Below, piece after piece: positions 4,771 through 62,677 of a DNA stretch of 64,000 nucleotides. Position numbers and translations under genes: made by a program. Where the stretch lies: positions 64,001 to 128,000 of the IMG/VR virus record IMGVR_UViG_3300045988_181536, one strand, 5' to 3'. This DNA comes from a virus. How positions within the stretch are numbered: the first letter of the stretch is position 1; the number at the start of each line of letters is the position of its first letter. The notes under the pieces were generated by a model, which worked only from the letters and a program-made list of their open reading frames with translations, searched no databases and was not told where the DNA came from.

Positions 4771-5271
4771 ATGATCGCTGCATCTTACTTCTCTGATACA
4801 ACTTTTGCCGTTATTTTTATCACAGGCGTTATACTGCTAGTATCTTATTGTGCTGTTAAATATGCCGGATTTAATACTGCAACTCAAGGTGATGAGTTGA
4901 TTGAAGACCGTAACCATACACATCCAACTGCCGAGAAACATCCGGTAATTATTGTAAAAAGAATAACTTATACAAAATTTGTCGATCGAAAGTTTAAATT
5001 GGCTTTGTCTACAAAGCATTATAAAAAATTTGCGCAATTTAAACATAAATTAGTTTTGCATATACCCACGGACACAATGGCTGACGCAGAAAAGGAAGTT
5101 GAAATGTTTGACCATTTTCTAAAAACTTTTCCGCATGATAAAAAACGGCTATTTGGTGCGAGATTTAGTGCTGGAAACGGCGATGTAATTGTGGCGGTTG
5201 GCATGGCATCATTAAAAGATAAACAGGAATTTTTAGCAGCCTTAAGAGAACAAAACGTAATCATTCTTTAA
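4771..5271 (+). CDS. hypothetical protein (N-terminal TM segment)
   Basis: 166-aa ORF. Confidence 0.45.
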   Translation: MIAASYFSDTTFAVIFITGVILLVSYCAVKYAGFNTATQGDELIEDRNHTHPTAEKHPVIIVKRITYTKFVDRKFKLALSTKHYKKFAQFKHKLVLHIPTDTMADAEKEVEMFDHFLKTFPHDKKRLFGARFSAGNGDVIVAVGMASLKDKQEFLAALREQNVIIL

Positions 5272-5272
5272 C

Positions 5273-5962
5273 ATGCAGACTAAAAAACTTATTGTTGTTG
5301 AAGCTTGCGACGGGTGTGGAAAAACCACACTCGTTAATAATTTATGCAAACTGTTTGAAAAACGAGACGGCTTTAAACCCGTTTGTGTAAAAGAGCCTTG
5401 GGAAGGTTCGGAAATAGGCACGTTTATTCGTTCTTGGATTAAGCATGTAGATTTTTCAACCAGTGAACTAAAAAAGGAACAAGCATTATTGCTGTTCTCT
5501 GCAGCCCGACTGGAAATGTTGGAGCAATTTTTATTAAAAGAATTAGTTCGTAAAGACGATAACGATTCGCCAATCATCCTTTGCGACAGATTTGTTTTGT
5601 CTACTTGCGTTTATCAAAATCTTAAGTCAGAAGCTCCTTTGTGCTTGCCAAGGTTAACGCAAGCGATTTTAAGCACGATAGCAGATTTGCTTAAAGTTGA
5701 TTGTACGTTGTATTTGGATTTAGACGCCGAAGTCATTGTTGACAGGCTAAATAAACGCAAAGAAAAGTCCGATGTAATGGATCAAAAGGACGTAACATGG
5801 TTTAATCAATTAAGCGGAACTTACAGTCATCAAATACAAATACTTCAGCATGATTATCCCACGCTGCTTGGCATGCTGCATTATCTTGATGCAAGCAAAT
5901 ATGCCGAAGTTGTTGCGGAGGATGCTTATGCATTTTTGAAAAGACATATCCTTAAAAACTAA
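5273..5962 (+). CDS. tmk: thymidylate (dNMP) kinase
   Basis: P-loop IVVEACDGCGKTT and DRx motif LCDRFVLSTCVYQ typical of thymidylate kinases. Confidence 0.7.
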   Translation: MQTKKLIVVEACDGCGKTTLVNNLCKLFEKRDGFKPVCVKEPWEGSEIGTFIRSWIKHVDFSTSELKKEQALLLFSAARLEMLEQFLLKELVRKDDNDSPIILCDRFVLSTCVYQNLKSEAPLCLPRLTQAILSTIADLLKVDCTLYLDLDAEVIVDRLNKRKEKSDVMDQKDVTWFNQLSGTYSHQIQILQHDYPTLLGMLHYLDASKYAEVVAEDAYAFLKRHILKN

Positions 5963-5963
5963 T

Positions 5964-6659
5964 ATGCAATTTTCGCCTAAATTTTACACGAACATATTTC
6001 AACATACAATTACCATTCCAATTCCTCCGGTGCATAACAGCACGGAGAAATTTTTTATCGATTTAACTTTTACCGAATGGCAGCTTAGCGAATGGTTTAA
6101 AAATAGCTGGCATGCGACTTGGGAAAACTTAAAATCAATGTTTATTCCCGGATATAAGTTTTGCATGAATTATATCGGTATTAAGTTTACCGTTTATGAA
6201 GAAGTCTTAGACGAGCATGGGTTTCGGCAAAACAAGTTAAAATTTGAAACCAATAAAGTATTTGAAAAAGATAACCCCGAAGCGGTGTTAAACGCCATGA
6301 CAACCCTATTCGGGCCCTTGTTTTATTGCGTAAATGCTGCATCTGACCAGTGTCAAACAATATCAAAATGGGGCATATCCTTTGCAAATCAGAAAACCGA
6401 TCAACAAAATTCGGAAGAACACGTAGCTAAAAAGTCTGATTTTAGTTATGTTATGGCAATCTATACGGATCCTGAGCATCATGAAATCAGTTGGGTAATC
6501 AGCCGCACGCATAAAAATATTTATTTTGCGTTTAGATTTAGTTCAGTAGCAGATTTAAAGTCTGTTTGCAGGGAAATCGAAAACGCTTTTGCGGATTTTT
6601 TCAACAATTATTATCCGAGTTTGCGTGTGTATAAGCCGATAATTGCGCCAATTGCATGA
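5964..6659 (+). CDS. hypothetical protein
   Basis: 231-aa ORF immediately following tmk. Confidence 0.5.
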   Translation: MQFSPKFYTNIFQHTITIPIPPVHNSTEKFFIDLTFTEWQLSEWFKNSWHATWENLKSMFIPGYKFCMNYIGIKFTVYEEVLDEHGFRQNKLKFETNKVFEKDNPEAVLNAMTTLFGPLFYCVNAASDQCQTISKWGISFANQKTDQQNSEEHVAKKSDFSYVMAIYTDPEHHEISWVISRTHKNIYFAFRFSSVADLKSVCREIENAFADFFNNYYPSLRVYKPIIAPIA

Positions 6660-6775
6660 AACCGATATTAAGATCGCTGATTAACCAAGCCATCCGTGCA
6701 AAATCTATTTTACAGACGGGTCGAGCATTTCATGCCACCATCGCTTTAAAAGGAAGCAAAGTAATAGCTATCGGA

Positions 6776-8160
6776 TGTCAACTACTCACCAGATGAACTA
6801 GTGAGCTTGATTTATATGTTTAAATCAATTTTAGACACTTCATTGCTTATGCTTGTTAAATCCTTAGTAGGCTTATCAAGTCTTATTTCAGCTCCATGTC
6901 TGTAATCATCCGTTGCAGATGATAGGATTGTTAATCCTCTTGTTAAAATATTTTTAGCAGCATTAACATCTCTGTCTAAAACTGTTCCGCATTGGGGACA
7001 TACCCAAAATCTATCTTTTAAAGTTAGGCTTTGATTAATATATCCGCAATTATGACAAGTTTTTGACGAAGGGTAAAAATGGTCTATTTTAATTATCTTC
7101 TTACCTTTCCATGCTGCTTTATATTCTAATTTTTGTATCATGCTATTCCAAGAGACATCTGCAATAGCATAAGCCAATTTATGATTTTGCATCATATTTT
7201 TAACAGCTAATGTCTCTAAACAAATTACATCATATTTGTTTAACAACAAGGTACTTAGTTTATGTTGCATATCTTCACGAGAATTGGTTATCTTTTCATG
7301 AAGTTTTGCTATTTTAATTCTAAGTTTTTCTTTTCTATTAGAACCTTTTTGTTTTTTGGAAAAGTGTTTTTGAAGCTTGGATAGTTTTGATTGATATTTC
7401 TTTTGAAATTTTAAGTTGGGATATCGTTTACCATCAGATGTTATAGCAAAATCTTTAATTCCCAAATCTATGCCCACTGCTTTTGTTAAATCTGCAGCAT
7501 CAGGAATACATACGTTTTGTTCTGTTAAAATAGAAACATAATATTTGCCTGACGGTTTTTTAGAAATTGTCGCACTACAAATTTTACCTTTTAAAGGTCT
7601 ATGATTAACAAACTTTATACCGTTCTTAAATTTGGGAATATATATTTTATCATTTTTAATAGCTACATTCTGTGGAACATTAAAAGAATTGTTTCCGTCT
7701 TTACGTTTAAACTTGGGAAATTTAGACTTTTTACTAAAGAATTTTCCAAAAGCCGTTTCTAAATTTTTTAATGATTGTTGAAGGCTTTGGGAATTAACAT
7801 CTTTTAACCACACATATTCCTTTTGCTTTTTAAGTGTAGTTAGAGCTTGTGAGCAATTATTGTAATTTAAAGTCTTTTTATTTTTAAGGTAAAATTCCTG
7901 TTTCTCTTTAAGAAAGTAATTATATACAAATCGGCAATGCCCAAAATGCAATGATAATAGTTCTTTGTCTTCAGGTGAGGGGTAAAGCCTATATTTATAG
8001 GATTTGTATATTGTTTTATTCATTATTTAAGTTAAACTAAAAACTACTTAGAATCAAATAGCAACAAAAAAAAATAAGAATCTATAATAACTTAAACAAA
8101 ACCCCACCATTCATCTTACCAGACAAGCTGGTAAGTTTTCTGGTGGAAATTAATAAAATT
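6776..8160 (-). mobile_element. IS200/IS605-family (IS1341-like) element carrying only tnpB; no tnpA
   Basis: RE hairpin ctcaccagatgaactagtgag overlapping the tnpB 3' end (6796-6817); LE-like nested palindrome ccaccattcatcttaccagacaagctggtaag..ctggtgg at 8104-8150. Confidence 0.6.
6812..8023 (-). CDS. tnpB: TnpB (IS200/IS605 family OrfB, RNA-guided RuvC-like nuclease)
   Basis: N-terminal YRLYPS..ELL..FG.CRFVYN; RuvC-I GIDLGIKDFA, RuvC-II ..CLETL, Zn finger CHNCG..CPQCG, RuvC-III DRDVNAAKNI. Confidence 0.85.
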   Translation of the reverse strand: MNKTIYKSYKYRLYPSPEDKELLSLHFGHCRFVYNYFLKEKQEFYLKNKKTLNYNNCSQALTTLKKQKEYVWLKDVNSQSLQQSLKNLETAFGKFFSKKSKFPKFKRKDGNNSFNVPQNVAIKNDKIYIPKFKNGIKFVNHRPLKGKICSATISKKPSGKYYVSILTEQNVCIPDAADLTKAVGIDLGIKDFAITSDGKRYPNLKFQKKYQSKLSKLQKHFSKKQKGSNRKEKLRIKIAKLHEKITNSREDMQHKLSTLLLNKYDVICLETLAVKNMMQNHKLAYAIADVSWNSMIQKLEYKAAWKGKKIIKIDHFYPSSKTCHNCGYINQSLTLKDRFWVCPQCGTVLDRDVNAAKNILTRGLTILSSATDDYRHGAEIRLDKPTKDLTSISNEVSKIDLNI

Positions 8161-8411
8161 ACGATTGTTAACCTAAGAATTGATAACAATAACCAAGTAG
8201 CAAACGCAAAACCTTGTGTAAACTGTCAACGAGTTTTAAAACAATTTAATTTTAAACATATTTTTTATACCAATGAGCAAGGGCAATTTGAAGAGTTTAA
8301 GATTGCGGTCGAAGATTAAAGCGCCGCCGACTAAAGTACACAAAGACAAAAAGAAAGTGCAGCAATTAAGTCGCAAGAATTGGAAAAATATAATTTCAAA
8401 CGGATAATGAT

Positions 8412-8714
8412 ATGATTCAAGAAATTAAACAATTTTTCTCTACCAGAAAATTAAAGAAAGAAGCCAAGGATATTGGCATGTCTTTATCGTTTAAGCCAAG
8501 CGAATGCGGATATTATACGAATAAAGTGAGAAATCACTATTCCAACACGGGCAATGTTAATGATCCAAAAGTTACCATGCTCAGGGAAAAGCTTAGAACC
8601 GTAGTGAAAAAACAATTTGATCCTGATATGCAAGGAGATTGGGATGTTTTGGTATACCCAAAATTTAGTTTAGATAAGAAATATATAGGCTTTGAAATTC
8701 GACTAAAATTTTAA
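8412..8714 (+). CDS. hypothetical protein
   Basis: 100-aa ORF. Confidence 0.45.
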   Translation: MIQEIKQFFSTRKLKKEAKDIGMSLSFKPSECGYYTNKVRNHYSNTGNVNDPKVTMLREKLRTVVKKQFDPDMQGDWDVLVYPKFSLDKKYIGFEIRLKF

Positions 8715-8718
8715 ATTT

Positions 8719-9015
8719 ATGCTGCTAAAACTCAGGTCTAAAAACAGGAAATCACGTATAGTTTCTAAGCAAAAGCAAAAAGCAGCCAATATTAGAGAAG
8801 ATTGGCTTTGTGGATTGGAACCTCTGGAAGTTGGAAAAATCAGCAACCATAAGCTGATAACGTTAGAATTTATGGCCCGAAAAGTGTCAGGTATAGGAAA
8901 CAACAGTAAATATTGGCGCCTTTATTCAGAAGGTGATTATGAAGCAGAAATTAGAGTAGCTGCATATTTTGCAGCAATGGAAAAATCTATTCTTAAACAA
9001 TTAAACCTAATTTAA
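8719..9015 (+). CDS. hypothetical basic protein
   Basis: 98-aa ORF. Confidence 0.45.
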   Translation: MLLKLRSKNRKSRIVSKQKQKAANIREDWLCGLEPLEVGKISNHKLITLEFMARKVSGIGNNSKYWRLYSEGDYEAEIRVAAYFAAMEKSILKQLNLI

Positions 9016-9018
9016 AAC

Positions 9019-9267
9019 ATGGAAACCAACAAAAAACTATTTGAAAATATAAAATATGCCGCGCAGCTTTTGGCATTTTGCTGCGTGTTGTTACTGTTGC
9101 TGTTAGTTATGACGCCTTTAATAGGTCTGATAGGCGTTATGATTCTGGCATATGCGGTTTATCAGCGGGGTGTAAAGCAAACTGTTAAAGACTTAAAGAA
9201 AGGTTTTTCGCGGACCTTTAACCGCGATGAATCTGAAAAAGCAAACTCTGACACTATAGACGTTTGA
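9019..9267 (+). CDS. small membrane protein
   Basis: Hydrophobic stretch LLAFCCVLLLLLLVMTPLIGLIGVMILAYAV. Confidence 0.45.
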   Translation: METNKKLFENIKYAAQLLAFCCVLLLLLLVMTPLIGLIGVMILAYAVYQRGVKQTVKDLKKGFSRTFNRDESEKANSDTIDV

Positions 9268-23408: not shown

Positions 23409-23953
23409 AACCCATACTAGATGTCTGTTGTGGCGGACGCATGTGGTGGTTTGATAAAAACGATGAACGTGCGGTGTTTATGGATAAGCGCACCTACGAG
23501 GGAACGTTATGTGATGGCAGACACTTTGAGGTAAAGCCAGATATCTTGGGAGATTTTACAAATATTCCATTTCCAGATGAAAGTTTTCACCTTGTAGTAT
23601 TTGACCCGCCACACTTGGAAAAGCTTGGAGAAACATCCTGGCTTTGTATTAAATATGGTAAGCTTCCAAGCGATTGGAAGGACAAACTAACAAAGGCATT
23701 TGAGGAATGCTTTCGGGTGCTAAAGCCTTTTGGAACATTAGTGTTTAAGTGGAACGAAGAGCAAATAAAGCTCAGTGAAATCTTAAAGCTTACTACAGCA
23801 AAACCTGTAGTTTTGCCTAAAAGATTTGAAAACCGTTATATCGTGGAAATCGATGGGGGCAATGGTTGGGCGTGTTTTATGTGTGCCCGTCCGATTGGGC
23901 GTCGGATAGAACCGCAAATCGACGGAGATATATATACTTGGGAGGAGAAATAA
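23405..23953 (+). CDS. DNA N6-adenine/N4-cytosine methyltransferase-like protein fused to the C-terminal signature of the LAMQILEQEG paralog family
   Basis: LDVCCGGRMWWFDK (motif I-like) and VVFDPPH (DPPH motif IV); C-terminal WACFMCARPIGRRIEPQIDGDIYTWEEK. Confidence 0.55.
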   Translation: MKPILDVCCGGRMWWFDKNDERAVFMDKRTYEGTLCDGRHFEVKPDILGDFTNIPFPDESFHLVVFDPPHLEKLGETSWLCIKYGKLPSDWKDKLTKAFEECFRVLKPFGTLVFKWNEEQIKLSEILKLTTAKPVVLPKRFENRYIVEIDGGNGWACFMCARPIGRRIEPQIDGDIYTWEEK

Positions 23954-23955
23954 AT

Positions 23956-24453
23956 ATGAATAAAAAACTAAAAATCCAATTCTGGAAAGCCGAGAAAGCT
24001 TTAGCAATGCAAATACTGGAACAGGAGGGTTTGCCGAAACGTAAAAACGAGGGAAACGTCCGCGTTTGGGACTACATTGCGCTCTTCAAAGAAGCTATAG
24101 TTTTAGGCGGAATAAATGAGTTCGATTTACATATTCCACACATTATATTCGACACCAACGCCGAGCGCGATGCCTATTTGGATAAAGTCATCAACGCAAT
24201 CACCGAGGAACTTTTCTCGGGCGAAGGCGAACTTAAAGTCGGGGAGATGTGCGAGGTTAGTGATGATGGTGTATCTTGGCACAAATATAGACTCTTAGCT
24301 ATATTGCCCGACCGTTATGAAATGAGATTCATTATAGAGAATGGAACACTGAGTTGGTGCACTTGCACATACGCTCGCCCTATTGTCAAGCGCATTGAGC
24401 CTACGCTCGATAAGCGTGGGAATGTCTTCACTTATACCTGGGAGGAAAAATAA
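23956..24453 (+). CDS. paralog-family protein (LAMQILEQEG / ARPI..IEP..YTWEEK family), copy 1
   Basis: Start MNKKLKIQFWKAEKALAMQILEQEGLP after a GGAGGAG RBS; C-terminal ARPIVKRIEPTLDKRGNVFTYTWEEK. Confidence 0.65.
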   Translation: MNKKLKIQFWKAEKALAMQILEQEGLPKRKNEGNVRVWDYIALFKEAIVLGGINEFDLHIPHIIFDTNAERDAYLDKVINAITEELFSGEGELKVGEMCEVSDDGVSWHKYRLLAILPDRYEMRFIIENGTLSWCTCTYARPIVKRIEPTLDKRGNVFTYTWEEK

Positions 24454-29480: not shown

Positions 29481-29492
29481 TTTTTTACCAAC

Positions 29493-34618: not shown

Positions 34619-35125
34619 ATGACTAAAAAATTAAAATTGGCCTTTTGGCTAACAGATAAAACCCTAGCTATGAAAATAGAGGAACAAGCCGGTTTGCCCC
34701 ATTTTAAAGAAACAGGGTTTGTGAGAATTAAAAGTTCACCTTATCTTGAAGATTGGGGGATTTACCTAAGGGGCAATTACTGGGCTGCTGATAATCAAGT
34801 TGTATCAAAATGTTTTATCAGCAACGAAGAGCGCGACGCCTATTTGCATAAGGTTATTAATGCAATCACGGACGAGCTTTTCACGGGCGAAGGAGAATTG
34901 AAAGTTGGTGAGATGTGCGAGGTGAAAGATGGGGAAGTTGGCGATTGGGAAAAAAGGAAGCTCATAGCAGTTCTTCCAGCGCAATACAGAGAGCGATTCA
35001 TTGTTGAATGGGAGGATTGCCCTACTGAGCACGCTTCTTGGACTTACGCCCGCCCAATAGCTAAGCACACAGAACCCACCGTTGAGGAGTGCGGAAACGT
35101 AGTCACCTACATTTGGGAAAAATAA
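34619..35125 (+). CDS. paralog-family protein, copy 5
   Basis: LKLAFWLTDKTLAMKIEEQAGLPHF .. ARPIAKHTEPTVEECGNVVTYIWEK. Confidence 0.6.
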   Translation: MTKKLKLAFWLTDKTLAMKIEEQAGLPHFKETGFVRIKSSPYLEDWGIYLRGNYWAADNQVVSKCFISNEERDAYLHKVINAITDELFTGEGELKVGEMCEVKDGEVGDWEKRKLIAVLPAQYRERFIVEWEDCPTEHASWTYARPIAKHTEPTVEECGNVVTYIWEK

Positions 35126-50268: not shown

Positions 50269-52584
50269 TCAGAATACAAAGGCTTTCCTTATTTCATCCA
50301 TCAAGTTATTATGGTTTTCCCTAATGGTATTTGCGCATACCTGAAGATAAGCGGGATACCACTTAATGTTGGATGTGCCCTTTGATACAACATTTTTCAT
50401 CCAAGAAGTAAAGTATCCTATAAAAGATACGTGGTCAATTGCATTCTTGAAATCCTTAAAGCAATCGGCATATAAGCTGCCTTTTCCGGTGCCGAAGGTT
50501 TTATGTACAGCCAAAGCTACAGCTTCAAAGATTTGTTGAATATAGGGCGTTTTGTCACAATGACCTTCAGCCATTTCAGTAAACAATATTTGCAGAATAT
50601 TTGACAAATGGTCATAAATCGCAGCTTTATCTTTGCAACGGAAACCTAAGAAACGGGTATTTATAGGTCCTTGATAAAGCGGATGACCTTGATAATCCGG
50701 CAGATCATTCTCTACAGGCATATTGTTAATATACTCCACAACCTTTGGAGGCAGCTGATCTAAATTTCGCAGAAGACGCAGTGACTGCATGCTGTGAATT
50801 AAGCGCTTGGGGAACAACGCCCTGCTTTCATGACCGAATAAGTCGCAAATCCTAAGTTTCTCTTCCATAGGAATGCTGTTATATTTTTCATGTCTGCAAA
50901 GATAAGAGCACATGCTCCTATGCCACCAGTTAGGCATAACATCCGCCTTTACATTCGGATTTTTATTTAACTGATCCGCGTGTAAAATCTTTTGATAATC
51001 ATTTATAAATTCATCCAACAAAGACTTAGGTTCAGGAATAGATCCAGGGAACAAAGCGTCCTCTGCCATAATAACTTCAAGCGTAGGACGGAAACGCTGT
51101 ACTTTGCCTATGCTGCGAACATTTTTCCGAAGTTCTTTAAGTTCTTCAATGGCCTCATTTAAATCTATTTCATATTCGCTTTTATTTATTCCAGTCCAAG
51201 CATTTCCTGGCTGAATAGGAAATACCTTTTCAGGTTCTTGATTTAACCTTGCGGCCTTTTCTGCAATTGCCTTCTGCCTTTGTTCGAAAATGGTTATGCT
51301 GTAATCTATTGCTTCCTGAATGTCTTTAATATGGTTGCTGCGACGTTCCAGAGATTTAAAAAACCTAAACGGAGCCAAATAAACCGCATGCAAAGATTCG
51401 CTTAAAAATCTATAACTCATCACTGAAGAGAATTGTTTTTCAGGACGAATATATTTTCCAAGATAACGCTTGCTTATGGACTTAAGATCCTTTTGAAATC
51501 TTTCCCATTTGCGGCATTTATCCGCTTGAATTGTATCCTCTAAAGATTCTGTGCCCTGGGGCTTGGCTGGAGGAGACCATTTGAGGGCTTTTCTGTCCAC
51601 CTCCATATAGTCTATTATGGTTTTATTGGAATCATTTCCTGTATGTGCGCTGCAAGCAACTCTAAGTTCATTCAACATCTTCCAATAGCTTTTTTTGCAG
51701 AATCTGCCACCCATAGAATTGATAAGATTCTTAAGATAAAGAATATTGGGAAGATGATGCTGTATATCACCTTCTCGCTTACGTTCTAAATCAAGATAAA
51801 GCGAATGATAAAACTTGGTTCCGTGAAGCTTATTGGATATGAACTTGAAATTCATCATTACCGCCATATTCGGATTTGACGGGCAATAATCCAAAGACAT
51901 GTCTAAGAGATGAAGCGCATGTGTATCTGCCAAGGAGCAATGATTGTAATTGGCATATTGTATGCGCTTTAATTGAGGATTATAACCTGCAAAAAACTTA
52001 ACAGACTTAAGCCCCCTTTCTGGAACATTGCAACGACGATCAGATAAAGTCCAGCCGTAACCGTTGGTGGCTTTAGGGTTTTTTTCAGCCCATTCCTTCT
52101 CAAGCTGTGCTCTTTTCTGAGCACGTTCCTTTGCCTGTTGCTCCTTTTTTAAGGCTGCTTCTTTTTCCAGCTTTTCCTTTTTTAAAGCCTCTTCCTTGGC
52201 CTTTCTTCTCTCTGCAAGCATCTGTTGATAGATTGCTCTGCCTTTTGCAATAGCTTGTCTTCTACGCTCTCTGTCTTCTTCGGAGATATTTAAAGGCTTA
52301 GTGACTTTGTAACCCTTGGGGCGTCGAAAACGATATTTGTCCAACTTGGCTTTAGCTAATTCTAAAACTTTTTCTGAAACCGTATATTTCCTCTTGCCAG
52401 TTTTCGTGGCTCTATCTGCAGCCACTAAATTCATGCAACATTGTACTAAAGTTTTTTGATTTGCTTTAAGCTTATCTTGATCCAAACGTCCAGTTCCACC
52501 CCCGCGAGCTCTGTGCACCTTCTCGTTCAGGATGCTCTTAGACATATCGCAGTATTCTTCTGTATTACCAATAGTTGTTGCCAT
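50269..52584 (-). CDS. large hypothetical protein (771 aa) with central Lys/Glu-rich coiled-coil segment
   Basis: Only long minus-strand gene in this part; KEEALKKEKLEKEAALKKEQQAKERAQKRAQLEKEWAEK. Confidence 0.6.
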   Translation of the reverse strand: MATTIGNTEEYCDMSKSILNEKVHRARGGGTGRLDQDKLKANQKTLVQCCMNLVAADRATKTGKRKYTVSEKVLELAKAKLDKYRFRRPKGYKVTKPLNISEEDRERRRQAIAKGRAIYQQMLAERRKAKEEALKKEKLEKEAALKKEQQAKERAQKRAQLEKEWAEKNPKATNGYGWTLSDRRCNVPERGLKSVKFFAGYNPQLKRIQYANYNHCSLADTHALHLLDMSLDYCPSNPNMAVMMNFKFISNKLHGTKFYHSLYLDLERKREGDIQHHLPNILYLKNLINSMGGRFCKKSYWKMLNELRVACSAHTGNDSNKTIIDYMEVDRKALKWSPPAKPQGTESLEDTIQADKCRKWERFQKDLKSISKRYLGKYIRPEKQFSSVMSYRFLSESLHAVYLAPFRFFKSLERRSNHIKDIQEAIDYSITIFEQRQKAIAEKAARLNQEPEKVFPIQPGNAWTGINKSEYEIDLNEAIEELKELRKNVRSIGKVQRFRPTLEVIMAEDALFPGSIPEPKSLLDEFINDYQKILHADQLNKNPNVKADVMPNWWHRSMCSYLCRHEKYNSIPMEEKLRICDLFGHESRALFPKRLIHSMQSLRLLRNLDQLPPKVVEYINNMPVENDLPDYQGHPLYQGPINTRFLGFRCKDKAAIYDHLSNILQILFTEMAEGHCDKTPYIQQIFEAVALAVHKTFGTGKGSLYADCFKDFKNAIDHVSFIGYFTSWMKNVVSKGTSNIKWYPAYLQVCANTIRENHNNLMDEIRKAFVF

Positions 52585-55217: not shown

Positions 55218-58200
55218 ATGGAAGAACAAGTAAAAACAAAAACCACGGATAATCCGGATCCGTTTACGAATGAGTTTTCCCGACAGATTTGGGAAGTAAC
55301 CTATAAAACGCAAAATGAAAAGAGTATTACAGATACGTGGAAACGTGTGGCAAATGCTGTAGCCAATGTAGAAAAGGATGAAGAATCCAAAAGATTTTAT
55401 GCTGAGGCTTTTTATGAGATTTTAAAAGATTTTAAGTTTATACCCGGAGGTCGTATATTGGCCAATGCAGGGGGTAGTTGTAAGAATGTCTCTCTCGTCA
55501 ACTGTTATCTCTCACCTGCTCCCAAATACGACATGGATTCCGTTGAAGGAATTATGGAGGTATTAAAGAACCAGGTTTTAACTTTAAAATCTGAAGGAGG
55601 CTGGGGTTTAAATTGTAGTTTTATTCGTCCCAGAGGTTCTTATATAGAAGGCATAGGTGCCAGAACCCCCGGTGCTGTAAAGTATTTGGAGCTGTTTGAT
55701 AAAAGTTCCGAAATTATTACGGAAGGTCCAGGAGAGTATTACATAGAGAATAAAGAAAAAACGCCTAAGAATGAAAAGAAGAAAATTCGCAAGGGTGCAA
55801 TGATGCTTTGTTTAAGCTGCTGGCATCCTGATATATACGAATTTATTACTGCCAAACAAAAGCCGTTTCATCTAACTAAAATGAATATGTCCGTAAATGT
55901 TACCAATGCTTTTATGGATATTTTAAATAGAGTTAACGAGCTTGTTAAAAACAATGCTTCGCAGGAAGAAATCGATGCTGTTGATTTTTGGCAATTGAGA
56001 TTTCCTGATACGGCTTTTGAAAAGTATAAATCCGAATGGGATGGAGACTTGGATAAATGGGAGAAAAAAGGTTATCCTGTAAAAGTTTATCGTACAGTAA
56101 GGGCTACTGATCTATGGGAAGCCTTAATGCAGTCTACCAGCAATCGTTCGGAGCCTGGAGTTTTATTTCTCGATAGGGCAAATGAGACACATTGCGCAAA
56201 TTATATCCCTGAGTTGCAATTAGTTGGGACAAATCCTTGTCTTACTGGAGATACCAAAGTTGCTGTTGCTGACGGGCGTACAAATGTGACTATTAAAGAG
56301 TTGGCCGAAGCTGGCAGAGATGTTCCGGTGTTAGCTTGTGATAATGCTGGCAATATTGTTACAAAGTTAATGCGTAATCCTCGTATTACAGGCTATAATA
56401 AAGATATTTATCGAGTGACTTTAGATGATGGTAATCATATTGATTGCACGTCTAATCATAAGTTTAGATTGTCTGATGGAACATATAAAGAGGTAAAAGA
56501 TTTATCAACAGGTGTAGCTTTGCACACAAATACGTTAAGTGTAGAAGAGTATAAACGTTATTTAGTGCAGGAAGTTTTAAATACGGAAATTACCCCTAAT
56601 CTTCAGCTTGATTCCGTACAACAACTGTGTGAAGAAGCAAAGTCTCAGGGTTATGAGGTAAAAATAGATAATAACATAGTTTTGGTTAAGAGGGTTTGTG
56701 AGGAATGTGGAAAAGAACATTTTGTTCCATTTACTCATCGCGAAATTGCGTTTTGTTCTCTGGAATGTTTAAATACCCATTTGAATAAAGAAAAAATCGC
56801 TGCCAAAACCACAAATACTGATTTAGATGTAATATCTGCTGAGGATTGGCCTGTAAGGTTTGTTTCGTCTATTGAATATATAGGCAAACAAGATGTCTAT
56901 ACCGGTACAGTTGATGATGTGCATAATTATTGCGTTGGGATGTTTGAAACTGTGAATGAACATGGACATCCAAAATTTTATATACTTAATAATCAGCAGT
57001 GCGGAGAGCAGGTTTTATACAGCGGAGGATGCTGCAACTTAGGATCCATCAATCTTACGGCATTTATAGAGTACGATGAAACTAAACATGCCGCCGTTTT
57101 TAACTTTCAGAAGTTCTCTGATATTGTTCCTTATTGCGTAAGATTCTTGGATAATGTCATAGACATTGCCAATCTGCCTTTGGAAGAATATAAATATATG
57201 GCTGAAAGTTATCGAAGAATCGGGCTTGGTATTACAGGCATAGGCTCTGCTTTAATGATGTTGGGTCTAAAATACGATTCTAAGGAAGCTAAAGACTTTT
57301 TAACTAAAGTTTTTGATGTTTATAATTTCTTAGGGATAAGGGCAAGTATCGCTTTAGCTAAATGTAAAGGTGCGTTTAAAGGATGCAATCCTGCAAAACA
57401 TGCTGATAATATAAAATATACGTTTAGACATTTACCGAAGTATATATTGGATGCTTTGCAAAAAGAATTGTTAGAAACTAACGGCATCCGCAATTCAGCC
57501 TTGTTCTCAGTCCAACCGACAGGCAATACAGGGTGTCTAGCCAATAATATTTCAGGCGGTGTGGAACCTGTGTTTCAGTTAGAATACTACAGAATTGTTG
57601 GAGTGCCGATTGTTCCTGAAAGCATAAAAGATAAATGTCCTAGGTTCTGGGAGGGGGATTTTACTCCGAACAATTATTTCAAAGAAGTTAAATACGCAGA
57701 TTTTACTTACTTGTCTTACGTAACTGAAGCTGGCCAAGAATATCAGATACATAAAGATAGAGGTCTGTGTGAAAAAGTAAAAATTCGAGATTATGCTTAC
57801 CAATGGATCTTGGATCATAATTTAGAATATCCACAGGAAGTTTTTACAACAGCTATGCAACTACCTGTTGAATCTCATTTGGAAATTCTGAAATTAGTAT
57901 CTGCACATTTGGATTCCGCTGTAAGTAAAACGATAAATGTTGGCAAGGATTACCCTTATGAACAGTTTAAGAATGTTTATTTAGATGCATATAATAGCGG
58001 AGTAATAAAAGGAGTTACGACTTATCGTGAGGGTTCTATGAGTGCAGTATTGCAAACTACGGATTCGAAAGATGACGTAAATCCTACATCTACATCGATT
58101 ATTCATCCTACTATTACTGCTGAGAAACGTCCTGATATATTGCCGTGTAGAGTATTTTTTAGAACGGTAAAAGGAATATCTTATTACTTTATTGTAAGTT

Positions 58201-58664
58201 TCTTGGAAAATAGTCCGTTTGAGATGTTTATTGACATAAATGAAGATAACATTTTTGACGAGGATGGAGAATGGGTTGAGCGCCGTCGCATTATACCCAA
58301 GACTGTAAAGGAAGGAACTTTAAAGAAGTTGGGTAAGGCTACGTTCGAGTTTGTATCTAAAGATGAGAAATTTATATTTAAAATTGTAAAAGCCAATGAG
58401 TCTTCAGATAAAGCCACATTAACAGCCCTTGCTCGTTTGGTGGCTTTGAATTTGCAGTCCGGTGTATCAGTGAAAGAGATAATACATCAGCTATCTAAAA
58501 CCGAAGGGGATTTTACTTCAATTGTGAAAGCAATTAACAAAGTATTGTCTCAGTGTGCTGGTAAAGTTGATCTTGGAGAAACATGCCCTGTTTGCGGAGG
58601 TAAAGTGTTACGTGAAGAGGGATGTAAAAAATGCTATGCATGTGGATGGTCTGCATGCGGCTAA
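55218..58664 (+). CDS. ribonucleotide reductase, class II-like (NrdJ-like), intein-containing
   Basis: RNR motifs NCYLSP, LKSEGGWGLNCSFIRPRGSYI, RKGAMMLCLSCWHPDIYEFI, active-site TNP|CGEQ interrupted by intein, CNLGSINL, C-terminal Cys-rich tail CPVCGG..CKKCYACGWSACG. Confidence 0.75.
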   Translation: MEEQVKTKTTDNPDPFTNEFSRQIWEVTYKTQNEKSITDTWKRVANAVANVEKDEESKRFYAEAFYEILKDFKFIPGGRILANAGGSCKNVSLVNCYLSPAPKYDMDSVEGIMEVLKNQVLTLKSEGGWGLNCSFIRPRGSYIEGIGARTPGAVKYLELFDKSSEIITEGPGEYYIENKEKTPKNEKKKIRKGAMMLCLSCWHPDIYEFITAKQKPFHLTKMNMSVNVTNAFMDILNRVNELVKNNASQEEIDAVDFWQLRFPDTAFEKYKSEWDGDLDKWEKKGYPVKVYRTVRATDLWEALMQSTSNRSEPGVLFLDRANETHCANYIPELQLVGTNPCLTGDTKVAVADGRTNVTIKELAEAGRDVPVLACDNAGNIVTKLMRNPRITGYNKDIYRVTLDDGNHIDCTSNHKFRLSDGTYKEVKDLSTGVALHTNTLSVEEYKRYLVQEVLNTEITPNLQLDSVQQLCEEAKSQGYEVKIDNNIVLVKRVCEECGKEHFVPFTHREIAFCSLECLNTHLNKEKIAAKTTNTDLDVISAEDWPVRFVSSIEYIGKQDVYTGTVDDVHNYCVGMFETVNEHGHPKFYILNNQQCGEQVLYSGGCCNLGSINLTAFIEYDETKHAAVFNFQKFSDIVPYCVRFLDNVIDIANLPLEEYKYMAESYRRIGLGITGIGSALMMLGLKYDSKEAKDFLTKVFDVYNFLGIRASIALAKCKGAFKGCNPAKHADNIKYTFRHLPKYILDALQKELLETNGIRNSALFSVQPTGNTGCLANNISGGVEPVFQLEYYRIVGVPIVPESIKDKCPRFWEGDFTPNNYFKEVKYADFTYLSYVTEAGQEYQIHKDRGLCEKVKIRDYAYQWILDHNLEYPQEVFTTAMQLPVESHLEILKLVSAHLDSAVSKTINVGKDYPYEQFKNVYLDAYNSGVIKGVTTYREGSMSAVLQTTDSKDDVNPTSTSIIHPTITAEKRPDILPCRVFFRTVKGISYYFIVSFLENSPFEMFIDINEDNIFDEDGEWVERRRIIPKTVKEGTLKKLGKATFEFVSKDEKFIFKIVKANESSDKATLTALARLVALNLQSGVSVKEIIHQLSKTEGDFTSIVKAINKVLSQCAGKVDLGETCPVCGGKVLREEGCKKCYACGWSACG
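56238..56999 (+). other. intein (254 aa) inserted before the catalytic Cys of RNR
   Basis: Block A CLTGDTKVAV, block B DCTSNHKF, internal Cys4 segment CEECG..CSLEC, block F VYTGTVDDVHNYCVG, ends ..ILNNQQ followed by CGEQ. Confidence 0.7.
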
Positions 58665-58717: not shown

Positions 58718-61700
58718 ATGAGAGAAAGCGAAATTAATTTACCCCCCGTGAATATGGATTTGCCATGTCCTAAATTGGCAGATTTTTGCGGAGATTTATC
58801 GTATAAACGTTGTAAGGATGACTTAACTCCCGAAAACGATAATGTAGTATTTTTAAATGGTGTAGGCAGGTTAAATGCGGATATAATGTTTTTAACTGCG
58901 GCGCCATTAAAAGAGGATGTGGATGCGAGATATTCTACACCTATGCATTTAAAATCGGGTGCCGGTGAAATGTTTCGCGCAATATGTTTGCAAAATGGCA
59001 TTGATATTGATGACTGTTATTTTACGTCATTAATAAAGTACGGAATAAAACAAAAGAATTTAAAAGGTTGTAAAAAGGATATAGATTATTGTTTGCCTTT
59101 GCTTCTGGAAGAATTTCAGTATTGTCACCCAAAAATTATAGTTTGCGTCGGTACGGAAGCGTGTGACTTTATTTTAAATTATAAAATAAGCGTATCAAAA
59201 TTGGAAGAGGCGTGGTTTTTTAGTCAAGAACACAACGCTCATGTGTTTGTAATTAGCAGTATTTATAATGCCTATTATAAGCCTGAATTGTACGATAAAT
59301 TAGATAAAGAGATAGGCATGTTGGCTGACTTTTATGATCATTTTCTACAAGGCAAGCCAATCGAGCAGATAAAGTGTGACTATCAATGTATTTCAACTTA
59401 TTCACAGTTATCCAATTTGTTAAATCAGCTTAAGTCTGAAGGTTATAAATTATTTGGAGTTGACTGCGAGTGGGGTAAACAATGTTTTGTAGACGGATAT
59501 CTTAGATCAATACAATTTGCATGGGCTCCAGGCAAGGCAGCTTATATAAACTTTAATAATGAACAAGCCGAATGGGTCTTTGATGCATCAAAAGAATCGG
59601 TATGTAAATTATTGCAAGATTTTTTTAATGACCCTGAAGTGCATTTTGTAGGGCATAACGGAGCGGCTGATGCTCAATGGATGTCAACACATTTGGGACT
59701 AAATGTGTATGACGGCAAGTTTATTTTTGACACCATGTTTGGTATTCAGACAGCTGATGAATATGCTGATCAAAAGTTGGAAAAATTAGCTGCCAAATAC
59801 ACAGATAAAGGCAGATATGATATTGATCTGATCTTATGGAAGAAAAATAATAAAGGCGTATCCTTTGATGAAGATGAAGGATATGGACAAGTTCCTTTGG
59901 AAATTCTTTACCCATATGGTTGTTCGGATGCCGATGTAACTTTAAGATTGTATCCGATTATTAAAGACATGTTAATTAAAGACGGCACTTATGATTATTT
60001 CATGAATATTAAGTTGCCGTTTGTTATTGATGGATTTACCTCCATGTCTATTGCGGGTGTGCCTTTTTGCACTGAGGATGCCAATAAAGCGCGAATAGCT
60101 TATCTGGCCGCAGGCGTAGTCATGCAAAAGTTGTTTATGCAAATGCTTAAAAAAGAGGCATATGATTTGTTTTATACGGAAGTGTCAAAAATTCCGCAGG
60201 AAACGCCTGTAGCGAATATTGCAGAAATTCAAAAGTTTTTTGATGATGAAAGATCTTTTGAAGATATTTTTAATCTGTTAAAAAAACTTTATGGGCGCAA
60301 AGCATTGCCTTTATTGCCGTTTGCTGAACATTATTACTATGTGGATGCCTTTAATCCCAATTCTGCAGAGCATAAAAAGAAATGGTTGTTTGACGTAAAG
60401 AAATACACGCCTATTAAAACAACTAAGCCGGAAGAGGGTAATGCAATACCCTGGGAAAGAGTATTAAAAATGTCCCCCGCTAAGCAGAAAAATTATAAGC
60501 CTGCTGTGGATAAAGATACTCTTAAAATATTTGCGGATAAAGGAGATGATTTATGTCTGCATTTATTGCAAATGAATGCAATTAATCAGATAACCAAGAA
60601 TTTTCTAAAAGGTGAAGAAGGCGGGCTGCAAAAGTTTTTAACTTCAGATGGAAGGCTGCATTCCAACTTCGTTATGACCGAAAGCTCACGGCCACGATCG
60701 TTTAAGCCTAACATCTTAAACATACCAAGATATGTTACAGATTACATAGACAAGGGTTTCACGAAAGTATTAAAGTATTTTAATATTACAGATAAATCTG
60801 ATTTGTCGGAGTTTAATGAAGATAATTTTAATGAAATCGTAAATTCTTTACGTGAAACTTACGGCATTACCGAAAATATAACGATAAAAGATATGGTGCC
60901 TGCACCGTTGCGCTGGTGCTTTAAAGCGCCTGAAGGGTATTGTTTTGTCGATGCAGACTATGCCACAGCTGAAGTATGGTCGATTGCATATTTGGCAAAT
61001 GATAAAAAGTTAATTTCCACTTTGAATGATCCGGATCCGCAATTTGCATTTAAAAAGATGCCTGATGGTTCGGAAAAACAAGTGCGTATAGCATATTGTG
61101 ATGACATTGTTGAATTTACTGAAGATGCAAAAGATCCTGCACTACTTGTAGATCCTAATGATCCGGATTTGGTGAGAAATAATGACGGGTCTCTAAAGCA
61201 TCCGAAACAAGATGTTCACTGGGTTGCAGTGGAAAATAAATTTATGCTTAACACACCCCGAGAAAAGTTAAACAAGAAGAAGACGAGAGATGCTGCGGGA
61301 AAGGTAGCTAATTTTTGTTCTGGCAAAGAAAATTACGTTTATACTTTAGAGGGTTATAAAAAAGCAAAGTTAATAAAACAAGGAGATATTTTAAAATCAA
61401 TATCCGGTTTTACAAAAACTTTATCTGTTACTGCTTTAAATGAGAGAGACTGCATTAAGATCAGATTAAGTTCCGGATTAGTGGCTACTTATCATAAATA
61501 TCATAAGCTTAGATGCTTTAATGGTACGGAAATGGTCTGGGTAAGAGTTAAAGATATCGATCCAAAAAGGCATAAAGTAGTTACCTTCAATCCGAGTTTT
61601 ACTGAAGTTATAGGCACTTTTAATGTTCCAAAAGATTCTTATACGGATTTTTATACAGAATTGAAATGTCGTGAAGGTGATAATACCTATCGCTTGCCTG

Positions 61701-62677
61701 AGTGGATATTCTCTTTAAGTCGTGCTGAGATTTGGAGTATATTGCAACGCTTTTTAGAATTAAACCCCCGAGTCACCGATGCGGTGTGTTATCATTTTCC
61801 GTTAAAATTTTGGAAAAATAATTTAGAATTTATTTCCGATATTGCTTTATTGTTGAATTTTATAGGTTTTCAAACCAAGCTTTCGTTGGAACAAGGCGAG
61901 GATGTTTTAGTGGCTTCGGCTGCTATCGAACCTAATGGGCCTTTGCAAAATATTTATTTTAGTGAAGTTGTTTCTTTGGAACATGTGAAAGAAGATATTG
62001 TGGCAATTGAATGTGAATCCCATGAATATATAGACACTTCAATGAATAGCCATAATTCGATTCCTTATGGTGCAAGTCCTTCTTTGCTGGAACGTAACAT
62101 TGAAATAGCTTCAGGTGAAAAACCTGAACCTGGTACGGGACAAAAACTTATTGACGCCTATATGAACACCAAACCGCAAGTTGCAGAATTTTTGGAATGG
62201 TGTAAGTCTCTGCCTGACGGACAAGGGTATTACCAATCGCCTTCGGGATTTAAAAGACATTTTAAAATACCGCCTTTGGATGCTCAAATGTCGGATGATC
62301 TTAGAGAAAGTATCATAAGTAAACTTCGTCGAGAAGCTTGCAATATAGGATTGCAATCTTTGGTTGCTGACTCTTTAGCAAGGGCCATACCTCCACTAAA
62401 TGCCAGTTTTAGAAAGATGAATATGAAGAGCAGAGTAGTAATTCCTTTGTATGACGCTATTTATATTTTATCTCCTTACAACGAAGTCGATTTGGCTGTA
62501 AGTATGTTGAAGTTTTTTATGTCTGAGAATAATTATTGGGACCTAAAAGGCGGTCGCTTGCGTTACAGTATTGATGTCGAAGTTACAAAACGGTGGGGTA
62601 CAGAACTTTCTGAAGAAGAACACAAAGAACTAACTGAAGGATTAAAAAACGCTTGCCAGACGTTCAAGCTTGCGTAG
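58718..62677 (+). CDS. family A DNA polymerase with N-terminal UDG-like domain and 3'-5' exonuclease, intein-containing
   Basis: Exo I FGVDCEW, Exo II FVGHNGAADAQWM, Exo III YPYGCSDAD; Pol motif A FVDADYATAEVWSIAYLA; motif B R..AGKVANF|intein|SIPYGAS; motif C VIPLYDAIYIL; N-terminal ~150 aa weakly resembles family-4 UDG. Confidence 0.75.
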   Translation: MRESEINLPPVNMDLPCPKLADFCGDLSYKRCKDDLTPENDNVVFLNGVGRLNADIMFLTAAPLKEDVDARYSTPMHLKSGAGEMFRAICLQNGIDIDDCYFTSLIKYGIKQKNLKGCKKDIDYCLPLLLEEFQYCHPKIIVCVGTEACDFILNYKISVSKLEEAWFFSQEHNAHVFVISSIYNAYYKPELYDKLDKEIGMLADFYDHFLQGKPIEQIKCDYQCISTYSQLSNLLNQLKSEGYKLFGVDCEWGKQCFVDGYLRSIQFAWAPGKAAYINFNNEQAEWVFDASKESVCKLLQDFFNDPEVHFVGHNGAADAQWMSTHLGLNVYDGKFIFDTMFGIQTADEYADQKLEKLAAKYTDKGRYDIDLILWKKNNKGVSFDEDEGYGQVPLEILYPYGCSDADVTLRLYPIIKDMLIKDGTYDYFMNIKLPFVIDGFTSMSIAGVPFCTEDANKARIAYLAAGVVMQKLFMQMLKKEAYDLFYTEVSKIPQETPVANIAEIQKFFDDERSFEDIFNLLKKLYGRKALPLLPFAEHYYYVDAFNPNSAEHKKKWLFDVKKYTPIKTTKPEEGNAIPWERVLKMSPAKQKNYKPAVDKDTLKIFADKGDDLCLHLLQMNAINQITKNFLKGEEGGLQKFLTSDGRLHSNFVMTESSRPRSFKPNILNIPRYVTDYIDKGFTKVLKYFNITDKSDLSEFNEDNFNEIVNSLRETYGITENITIKDMVPAPLRWCFKAPEGYCFVDADYATAEVWSIAYLANDKKLISTLNDPDPQFAFKKMPDGSEKQVRIAYCDDIVEFTEDAKDPALLVDPNDPDLVRNNDGSLKHPKQDVHWVAVENKFMLNTPREKLNKKKTRDAAGKVANFCSGKENYVYTLEGYKKAKLIKQGDILKSISGFTKTLSVTALNERDCIKIRLSSGLVATYHKYHKLRCFNGTEMVWVRVKDIDPKRHKVVTFNPSFTEVIGTFNVPKDSYTDFYTELKCREGDNTYRLPEWIFSLSRAEIWSILQRFLELNPRVTDAVCYHFPLKFWKNNLEFISDIALLLNFIGFQTKLSLEQGEDVLVASAAIEPNGPLQNIYFSEVVSLEHVKEDIVAIECESHEYIDTSMNSHNSIPYGASPSLLERNIEIASGEKPEPGTGQKLIDAYMNTKPQVAEFLEWCKSLPDGQGYYQSPSGFKRHFKIPPLDAQMSDDLRESIISKLRREACNIGLQSLVADSLARAIPPLNASFRKMNMKSRVVIPLYDAIYILSPYNEVDLAVSMLKFFMSENNYWDLKGGRLRYSIDVEVTKRWGTELSEEEHKELTEGLKNACQTFKLA
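61316..62056 (+). other. intein (247 aa) inserted in DNA polymerase motif B
   Basis: Starts C at NF|CSGKENYVY, ends ..SMNSHN followed by SIPYGAS; the extein junction restores ANF-SIPYG, matching the PolA motif B consensus; internal region may be a degenerate homing endonuclease. Confidence 0.65.

Follow-up and report, generated by a model that had tools for sequence, protein, structure and literature searches.

A tnpB-only IS200/IS605-family element, probably recently mobile, in a partly deleted deaminase-like gene of an uncultured gut phage

Based on our findings, we propose that a 1,376-bp segment of a phage genome is a complete, non-autonomous insertion sequence (IS) of the IS200/IS605 family, of the tnpB-only (IS1341-like) type, and that it has recently been mobile among related gut phages. 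The segment lies at positions 6777-8152, with the minus strand as its top strand, of the window, by which we mean the whole stretch of 64,000 nucleotides analyzed here (positions 64,001 to 128,000 of IMG/VR record IMGVR_UViG_3300045988_181536). We consider this explanation highly probable; the grading covers, jointly, IS identity, recent mobility, movement by a TnpA transposase acting in trans, an omega-RNA guide, homing, and TnpA-type joining of element ends to flanking DNA. The kind of element is ordinary and already known, and this copy is a new member. Its carrier is a lineage of ~170-kb uncultured human-gut phages, and its landing site is a small deaminase-like gene that has been partly deleted. 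TnpB domains, palindromes at the ends, and a motif-specific target without duplication, which together characterize tnpB-only members of the IS200/IS605 family, were all found.

The TnpB protein and the element ends

The tnpB gene (6812..8023, minus strand) encodes a protein of 403 aa with an intact RuvC triad and zinc ribbon. The domains HTH_OrfB_IS605, OrfB_IS605, and Cas12f1-like_TNB (PF12323, PF01385, PF07282) were recognized at E values of 2e-15 to 2e-25, all above the Pfam cut-offs, and residues 7-381 align to the structures of ISDra2 TnpB (PDB 8H1J, 8BF8/8EXA) with an E value of about 1e-82. Aligned to the catalytic motifs of ISDra2 are the D in GIDLG (residue 186), the E in CLETL (270), and the DRD of LDRDVNAA (350-352); both CxxC pairs are also present. 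An initial annotation, made from the sequence alone, had described a 403-aa minus-strand TnpB with RuvC motifs and zinc finger, oriented against most of its neighbors and without tnpA, and each of these points was borne out: the surrounding genes are nearly all on the plus strand, no tnpA lies within the element, and a TnpA profile (described below) stayed blank across the 64-kb window. Among 13 close variants, all are 403 aa long and keep the catalytic motifs, with ratios of nonsynonymous to synonymous substitution rates of 0.17-0.32 relative to the window copy; tnpB appears to be under purifying selection. Among 50,697 deposited phage records, 433 hold a more distant homologue; none of these reaches 60% identity, and that of Parabacteroides phage PF672P2 comes closest (48.6%). 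In a set holding one genome per species, the best matches reach 47-48% (Clostridia and Paludibacteraceae metagenome-assembled genomes), which is uninformative on the host.

The element lacks terminal inverted repeats and carries subterminal imperfect palindromes at both ends, on the same strand. Its exact ends, 6777 and 8152, were set by comparison with empty sites and with other copies (loci numbered L001 onward below); the copies in L004, L005, and L006 share exactly 6777-8152 with the window and diverge outside. On the top strand, with a slash marking each junction, the boundaries read ...TTTAT/TAATTTCCACCAG... at the left end (LE) and ...GGTGAGTAGTTGAC/flank at the right end (RE). The LE (8024..8152, minus strand, 129 nt), whose boundary comes from the alignment with L004/L005/L006 and from the empty sites, holds a nested imperfect palindrome at 8104-8146 (minus strand) with an inner hairpin, CTTACCAG-CTTGT-CTGGTAAG, at 8115-8135. 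Directly 5' of the hairpin foot stands the tetranucleotide AAAA (8139-8136, minus strand), at the position of the LE "guide" tetranucleotide of IS608. At the other end, the subterminal hairpin CTCACTAG-TTCAT-CTGGTGAG (6785..6805, minus strand; whole hairpin ctcaccagatgaactagtgag) is followed by TAGTTGAC (6784-6777), the last base of which is the RE cut site. The two hairpins are related in sequence (CTTACCAG.. versus CTCACTAG..) and are conserved or co-varying in other copies; in L006, the RE stem is kept through paired changes (CTCACTAG-CTTGT-CTAGTGAG). The hairpin pattern occurs twice in the window, the second occurrence being a miniature copy described below, against 0.00 per shuffle in 100 shuffles. 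An RE ending one base earlier, at GTTGA, fits the pair of L161 and the window and fails for the pairs of L162 and the window and of the window and L001; GTTGAC was kept, and GTTGAT and TTTAC are treated as variants.

These coordinates refine the initial annotation. It had rightly noticed an RE hairpin, but the hairpin lies at 6785-6805 rather than 6796-6817 (~11 nt off), 7 nt past the stop codon and with no ORF (open reading frame) overlap. Its recognition of the nested palindrome as the LE hairpin was correct, with an extent of 8104-8146 in place of 8104-8150, and the element that it drew at 6776-8160 has its true ends at 6777 and 8152, the TTTAT at 8153-8157 being target sequence outside the element.

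The last 33 nt of the RE are common to two other TnpB subfamilies in sibling contigs, and this identity across subfamilies suggests one shared transposase. These two divergent subfamilies (for example, a 371-aa protein at L028 8382-9497) carry the same RE tip in L024, L028, L148, L151-L153, and L155 (contigs 181894, OYZN01000009, OYXW01000105, and others). In L151, one such divergent element abuts sequence matching the tRNA-Gln gene of the window, its RE flank corresponding to the window from 1775 onward.

Landing site, other copies, and miniatures

Immediately 5' of the LE on the top strand stands the target motif TTTAT (8153..8157, minus strand), a candidate target-adjacent motif (TAM) that lies outside the element: upstream of the shared TTTAT, the copies diverge. 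At the LE junctions, TTTAT was found in 10 of 12, with TCTAT and TTCAT once each, and TTTAT occurs at 0.46% of positions on the same strand. Under the IS608 pairing scheme (positions 1, 2, and 4 canonical), the AAAA of the LE would specify TTAT, which agrees with the observed target core.

Siblings of the window, fetched from IMG/VR as close relatives of the neighboring gene, show the site in its empty state, ...CGTAATTTTAT/GATAATC. L001-L003 match the window as far as position 6776 and resume at 8153, with 138 nt between these points where the window has 1,376, and L151 is the same. In the siblings, the 138 nt complete an uninterrupted ORF of 141 aa with an HSE...PCxxC signature, the product of which weakly matches dCMP_cyt_deam_1 (22.6 bits, below the 25-bit cut-off), as a cytidine/dCMP deaminase-like protein. 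In the window, the gene is split into a 5' remnant (6656..6776, plus strand), the frame of which runs into the RE and stops at 6796, and a 3' remnant (8153..8319, plus strand) that holds the PCVNC zinc motif; the 138 nt with the HSE motif are gone from between them. Since two independent human-gut metagenome assemblies (L158, L159) agree with the window over 6 kb at 100% identity, the window allele is not a chimera or an assembly artefact. Comparison with relatives lacking the insertion, a step that the initial annotation had proposed, gave, together with the other copies, both the exact ends and the target motif. In L162 (positions 1-1800, Logan ERR14141017 contig), the same deaminase-like gene is interrupted elsewhere by a different TnpB element, encoding 399 aa and sharing with the window element only a short nucleotide match (69.5% over 264 nt); this second element marks the gene as a repeated landing place.

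An element that interrupts a coding sequence could also be an IStron, a group I intron combined with an IS200/IS605 element. This candidate was rejected, and we give it a negligible chance: no group I intron was matched in 6000-9000 at E<=10, the element is antisense to the split gene, and the coding sequence has lost 138 nt, among them the HSE motif.

Copies of the element, collected with the RE pattern and exact-protein look-ups, are present in related gut-phage contigs at no fewer than 10 further sites, with 87-100% protein identity and mostly after TTTAT. The nucleotide identity of copies elsewhere in siblings is 97-98% (L004/L005, L149/L162, L161, and others) and 71% in L006, and an identical TnpB protein occurs on 22 contigs. 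Two of these sites are empty in the window. The site filled in L161 corresponds to 29484..29489 on the plus strand (29488/29489), where the window reads TTTAC/C and contig 181110 reads TTTAT/CAACATG; that filled in L162/L149, with the element in the opposite orientation, corresponds to 8986..8991 on the plus strand (8990/8991), which reads TCTAT/T. Neither filled/empty pair has a target duplication. The window, L173, and L175 between them show three "empty" alleles of the 29484-29489 site; these alleles, TTTAT/C, TTTAC/C (the window), and TTTAT-A-C, differ exactly at the junction of TAM and protospacer; that of contig 180451 has a 1-nt insertion (TTTAT-A-CAACATG). Around 48075, the window has likewise lost one base relative to the target of the L005 guide. 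Such junction changes are suggestive of escape from cutting or of excision footprints.

The initial annotation had left two readings standing, a recent IS insertion or a domesticated RNA-guided nuclease. The uninterrupted gene in L001, L002, L003, and L151, together with the copies at other sites, supports the former. Domestication would mean an immobile TnpB that the phage retains for its own use, as an RNA-guided nuclease or a TldR-like regulator, with a role such as gene regulation or defense. The lack of tnpA, purifying selection, and the identical protein on 22 contigs could be accommodated by it; the presence/absence polymorphism at the deaminase-like gene, the intact LE and RE with a common target motif at so many other sites, and the intact catalytic residues could not easily be. 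Lost RuvC residues or ends and a fixed position, as in TldR-like proteins, were not found, and the element destroys a gene instead of sitting at a conserved regulatory position. We therefore regard domestication as very improbable. Neither of the two observations that the initial annotation had named as grounds against its own proposal, homologues at the same position without IS boundaries and substituted RuvC residues, was made.

Neither the split gene with its 138-nt deletion nor a 47-nt miniature element was part of the initial annotation. The miniature lies at 18581..18627 (minus strand), TTTAT/ATTGTTTAATTCAGAAAACTCACCAGTTCATTTGGTGCGTAGTTGAC/, with its TTTAT at 18632-18628, in the intergenic space between the ORFs 18028-18459 and 18645-19004. 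Related miniatures were found in L026/L156 and in L027/L147, the latter occupying exactly the site, with both flanks the same, of the full-length copy in L005.

Two further arrangements were observed. In L165/L166, another hairpin-ended element has a copy inserted 12 nt downstream of its RE tip (...GATTAGTAGTTGAC/TTTCATATTTAT/TTATTTCC...), within the presumed guide of that other element. At 48076-48088, the window has only 13 nt (tgtggtagattat) where L004, L005, and L027 carry an extra segment of ~533 nt (L005 3329-3861); these 13 nt were considered as a relic of an RE, and the resemblance is too weak to claim. The segment holds an ORF of 173 aa without a Pfam match, apparent paralogues of which occur in the window (for example, 23866-24453 and 34619-35125), sharing "...LAMQILEQEG..." and "...KVGEMCE..." motifs.

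Predicted guide, flank deletions, and proposed homing

At the low-coordinate end of the element, a putative omega-RNA scaffold of ~214 nt (6777..6990, minus strand; 5' limit approximate) takes in the final ~180 nt of tnpB and extends as far as the RE tip, ...GGTGAGTAGTTGAC. The last 214 nt fold with a minimum free energy of -52.5 kcal/mol, against -36.8 ± 3.8 for shuffled sequences (z = -4.1), and 0 of 200 shuffles were as stable. Applied to an alignment of 12 copies, the predicted structure has 99.4% of cells paired and compensatory double changes at 11 pairs, where 1.3 ± 1.1 were obtained from column shuffles and 0-2 from slid partners. Other viral contigs (L141-L145) have tnpA-plus-tnpB elements whose RE likewise closes with the final 13-14 nt of the scaffold, as GGTGAGTAGTTCAC, so this tip would be a conserved part of the RNA in the clade. 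The initial annotation had put the junction of omega-RNA and guide at this end, correctly; the search with covariance models that it had also advised matched no omega-RNA family, the Rfam scan of 6000-9000 at E<=10 giving only chance snoRNA and miRNA matches and no intron. In silico, then, the features of an OMEGA system (obligate mobile element-guided activity) found here are a structured scaffold at the 3' end of tnpB and the RE, an exact boundary, and an intact RuvC triad in 13 copies. The predicted 16-nt guide is the flank after the RE, ATCCGATAGCTATTAC (6761..6776, minus strand, read 6776-6761), beginning exactly where copies diverge after GTTGAC. It is unique in the window, and the identical 16 nt occur in L001-L003, preceded there by TTGTTAT.

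The flanks of the element have changed by deletion. On the RE side, the window has lost 138 nt relative to L001-L003 and L151 (distal end ...TTGTTAT/), L004 has lost 135 nt relative to L005 (...AATTAT/), L157 and L169 have lost a further 146 nt relative to the window (6631-6776; ...GGCTTAT/), and L171 has lost 251 nt relative to L005, 116 of them beyond L004 (...GTGTTAT/). On the LE side, L169 has lost 368 nt relative to the window (8153-8520; ...CACTTTAT/). In all 5 independent deletions, the distal end lies immediately 3' of TTAT; since TTAT occurs at 1.04% of positions, this is not due to chance (about 1e-10). Nearer TTATs were skipped in several deletions, and each RE-side deletion gives the guide a new flank sequence. 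Since each deletion is bounded on both sides by a position where a transposase of the family cuts, the deletions would be best explained by TnpA-type joining, in which an end of the element is linked to a surrogate target. In three deletion alleles, the RE ends in GTTGAT instead of GTTGAC, as if both cuts had slid by one base, and the TTTAC at window 29484-29488 is the mirror-image product of such a slid GTTGAT cut; we report this as a pattern only. A fixed step of ~140 nt was considered for the RE-side deletions, the first three of which measure 135-146 nt, and is weakened by L171 (251 nt, or 116 beyond L004). In the literature that we searched, no adjacent or flank deletion turned up that changes the target of TnpB or ends at a surrogate target motif.

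The main rival for the flank deletions is homologous recombination between copies inserted at neighboring TTATs, or between a copy and a miniature; alternatively, random deletions may have been selected for a new guide adjacent to a TAM. Copies and miniatures are dense in sibling genomes, one site has been used by a full copy and by a miniature, the copy in L165 inserted 12 nt after the RE of another element, and phage recombination is efficient. However, none of the fetched loci showed a simple insertion at the distal TTAT of any of the five deletions, GTTGAT at three deletion junctions is explained by direct joining and not predicted by recombination, and random deletions would rarely keep the exact RE tip. 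We regard this rival as quite possible, although we do not favor it over TnpA-type joining.

From the end anatomy, the lack of target duplication, and the target motif, we infer movement by a Y1 (HUH) TnpA. Supplied in trans by the host or by another element, it would recognize the LE and RE hairpins and make two top-strand cuts, one 3' of TTAT and one 3' of ...GTTGAC, and the element would move as single-stranded DNA. The 3' ~214 nt and about 16 nt of flank are predicted to be transcribed as omega-RNA, with a fold supported by stability and covariation. TnpB with this RNA would then cut DNA carrying a TAM followed by the flank sequence, that is, the element-free alleles of co-infecting siblings, and the recombination machinery of the phage would repair the break from the element-bearing genome, copying the element across in a homing reaction. 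The window encodes SbcC/Rad50-like and metallophosphatase (Mre11-like) proteins. Homing by TnpB is established for bacterial IS605/IS607 (PMC10055086), and its extension to co-infecting phages has been proposed as "non-restorative homing" (PMC13565253). Over about 3.4 kb centered on the element (~5900-9300), L157 differs from the window by 2 substitutions, against 5-15 per 250 nt outside, and a similar element-centered tract of near-identity is seen between L004 and L005. These tracts are suggestive of co-conversion by homing.

Alternatively, the guide may serve as a weapon between phages, cutting and killing siblings with an intact deaminase-like gene without any copying of the element. Its 16 nt match L001-L003 perfectly beside a TTAT-containing motif, and competitor killing is known for phage homing endonucleases (PMC13565253). 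The motif there is GTTAT rather than TTTAT, however, and the element-centered near-identical tracts indicate transfer by recombination, not exclusion alone. Weapon and homing are not mutually exclusive; we consider killing without copying unlikely.

Several points weigh against the joint explanation of IS movement, guide, and homing. The first concerns the transposase. Our TnpA search started from an IS608 TnpA sequence, which was validated on bacterial loci, and the profile was rebuilt from those real genes; as a positive control, it finds TnpA adjoining tnpB homologues in bacterial loci. It gave no match in the 64-kb window, nor did it in L001-L028, the phage loci (best E 0.25). In a scan of viral contigs, the 80 matches listed are all TnpA of the Firmicute type, and none of them is on a sibling contig. 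Neither the window nor any fetched sibling locus thus yielded a TnpA, in a search that was not exhaustive for the remainder of the ~170-kb genome or for the host, and a transposase acting in trans is assumed. At the LE, the junctions TCTAT and TTCAT depart from TTAT. The fold that was tested for covariation was derived from the same sequences, and most of the covariation comes from the divergent L006 and L165. The guide target in the siblings is preceded by GTTAT and not by the TTTAT of the insertions, and this may not be a functional TAM. Finally, phages that carry no nuclease commonly show mosaic identity tracts as well, and phage mosaicism together with a local divergence of 5-8% could also yield both the junction changes and the identity tracts.

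If homing does operate, an arms race between homing drive and resistance can be imagined. TnpA-type joining to a TTAT would delete 116-368 nt of flank, install a guide that hits older alleles, and remove the target of the older guide, while the altered empty alleles (TTTAC at 29488, the 1-nt insertion in 180451, and the 1-nt loss at ~48075) would represent resistance. Guide switching of this kind would be a previously undescribed form of retargeting. We put this scheme forward tentatively and regard it as doubtful.

Phage context and comparison with known systems

The window is phage-like, with nearly all genes on the plus strand and four tRNAs. Among its products are an intein-bearing ribonucleotide reductase, a DNA polymerase of family A, a DnaB-like helicase, and a primase, besides the SbcC/Rad50-like ATPase mentioned above; megablast of 5000-10500 against deposited phages gave no match. 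Reductase and polymerase occupy the region formed by 55218-58664 and 58718-62677. The intein of the reductase large subunit spans residues 349-573 (Pfam Intein_splicing), and the polymerase has an N-terminal uracil-DNA glycosylase-like domain and, before its last polymerase motif, an unmatched insertion of ~300 aa that may be a second intein. The only two other long minus-strand ORFs are 13006-15045, which is distantly homologous to large terminases (about 25% identity to those of Bacillus and Vibrio phages; no Pfam match), and 50269-52584 (771 aa; no Pfam match).

By itself, the element is routine. Its value lies in a natural allelic series of filled, empty, and miniaturized sites and of stepwise flank deletions that stop at the target motif. 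Taken together, the guide-changing deletions, miniatures, junction variants, and identity tracts are suggestive rather than demonstrative. They offer suggestive field evidence for the proposed spread of TnpB between co-infecting phages by homing and point to a simple route by which TnpB elements could change their guide. In addition, the series supplies a compact ISDra2-like TnpB with a defined scaffold, a candidate TTTAT TAM, and many natural pairs of guide and target.

Compared with ISDra2 of Deinococcus radiodurans, the element shares a three-domain TnpB with the RuvC D-E-D triad and zinc ribbon, a guide-RNA scaffold that overlaps the 3' end of tnpB and reaches the RE, a guide taken from the RE flank, and a T-rich 5-nt TAM 5' of the LE. 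Unlike ISDra2, it has no tnpA, and its carrier is a lytic-looking gut phage rather than a bacterial chromosome. The candidate TAM is TTTAT here, while that of ISDra2 is reportedly TTGAT. As in IS1341-type elements, tnpB alone stands between family-type ends. As in the PATE-like (palindrome-associated transposable element) and MITE-like (miniature inverted-repeat transposable element) miniatures of IS200/IS605, the ~47-nt hairpin miniatures share end sequence and target motif with the full element; unlike in those, a single hairpin here combines an LE-type 5' part with the RE tip.

The end anatomy recalls that of IS608, with subterminal imperfect palindromes at both ends and no target duplication. 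In IS608, cleavage at the LE falls 3' of TTAC and 19 nt 5' of the foot of the LE hairpin, cleavage at the RE falls 3' of TCAA and 10 nt 3' of the foot of the RE hairpin, and the LE cut site is read through pairing with AAAG just 5' of the hairpin foot (PMC3201880). Here, the LE cut likewise falls outside the element, 17 nt 5' of the foot, and the RE cut inside it, 8 nt 3' of the foot, and AAAA would pair with TTAT as AAAG does with TTAC (PMC3201880). Unlike in IS608, the transposase is absent here, so the mechanism is proposed by analogy.

For the homing step, the nearest comparison is with the free-standing homing endonucleases of T-even phages (Seg, Mob) and the "non-restorative homing" suggested for TnpB (PMC13565253). 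Unlike with Seg and Mob, homing drive is here a proposal, and recognition would be by an RNA guide and a TAM. As in those systems, the nuclease gene is polymorphic among close phages, tracts of unusually high identity flank it as co-conversion would leave them, and the empty allele carries the predicted cut site.

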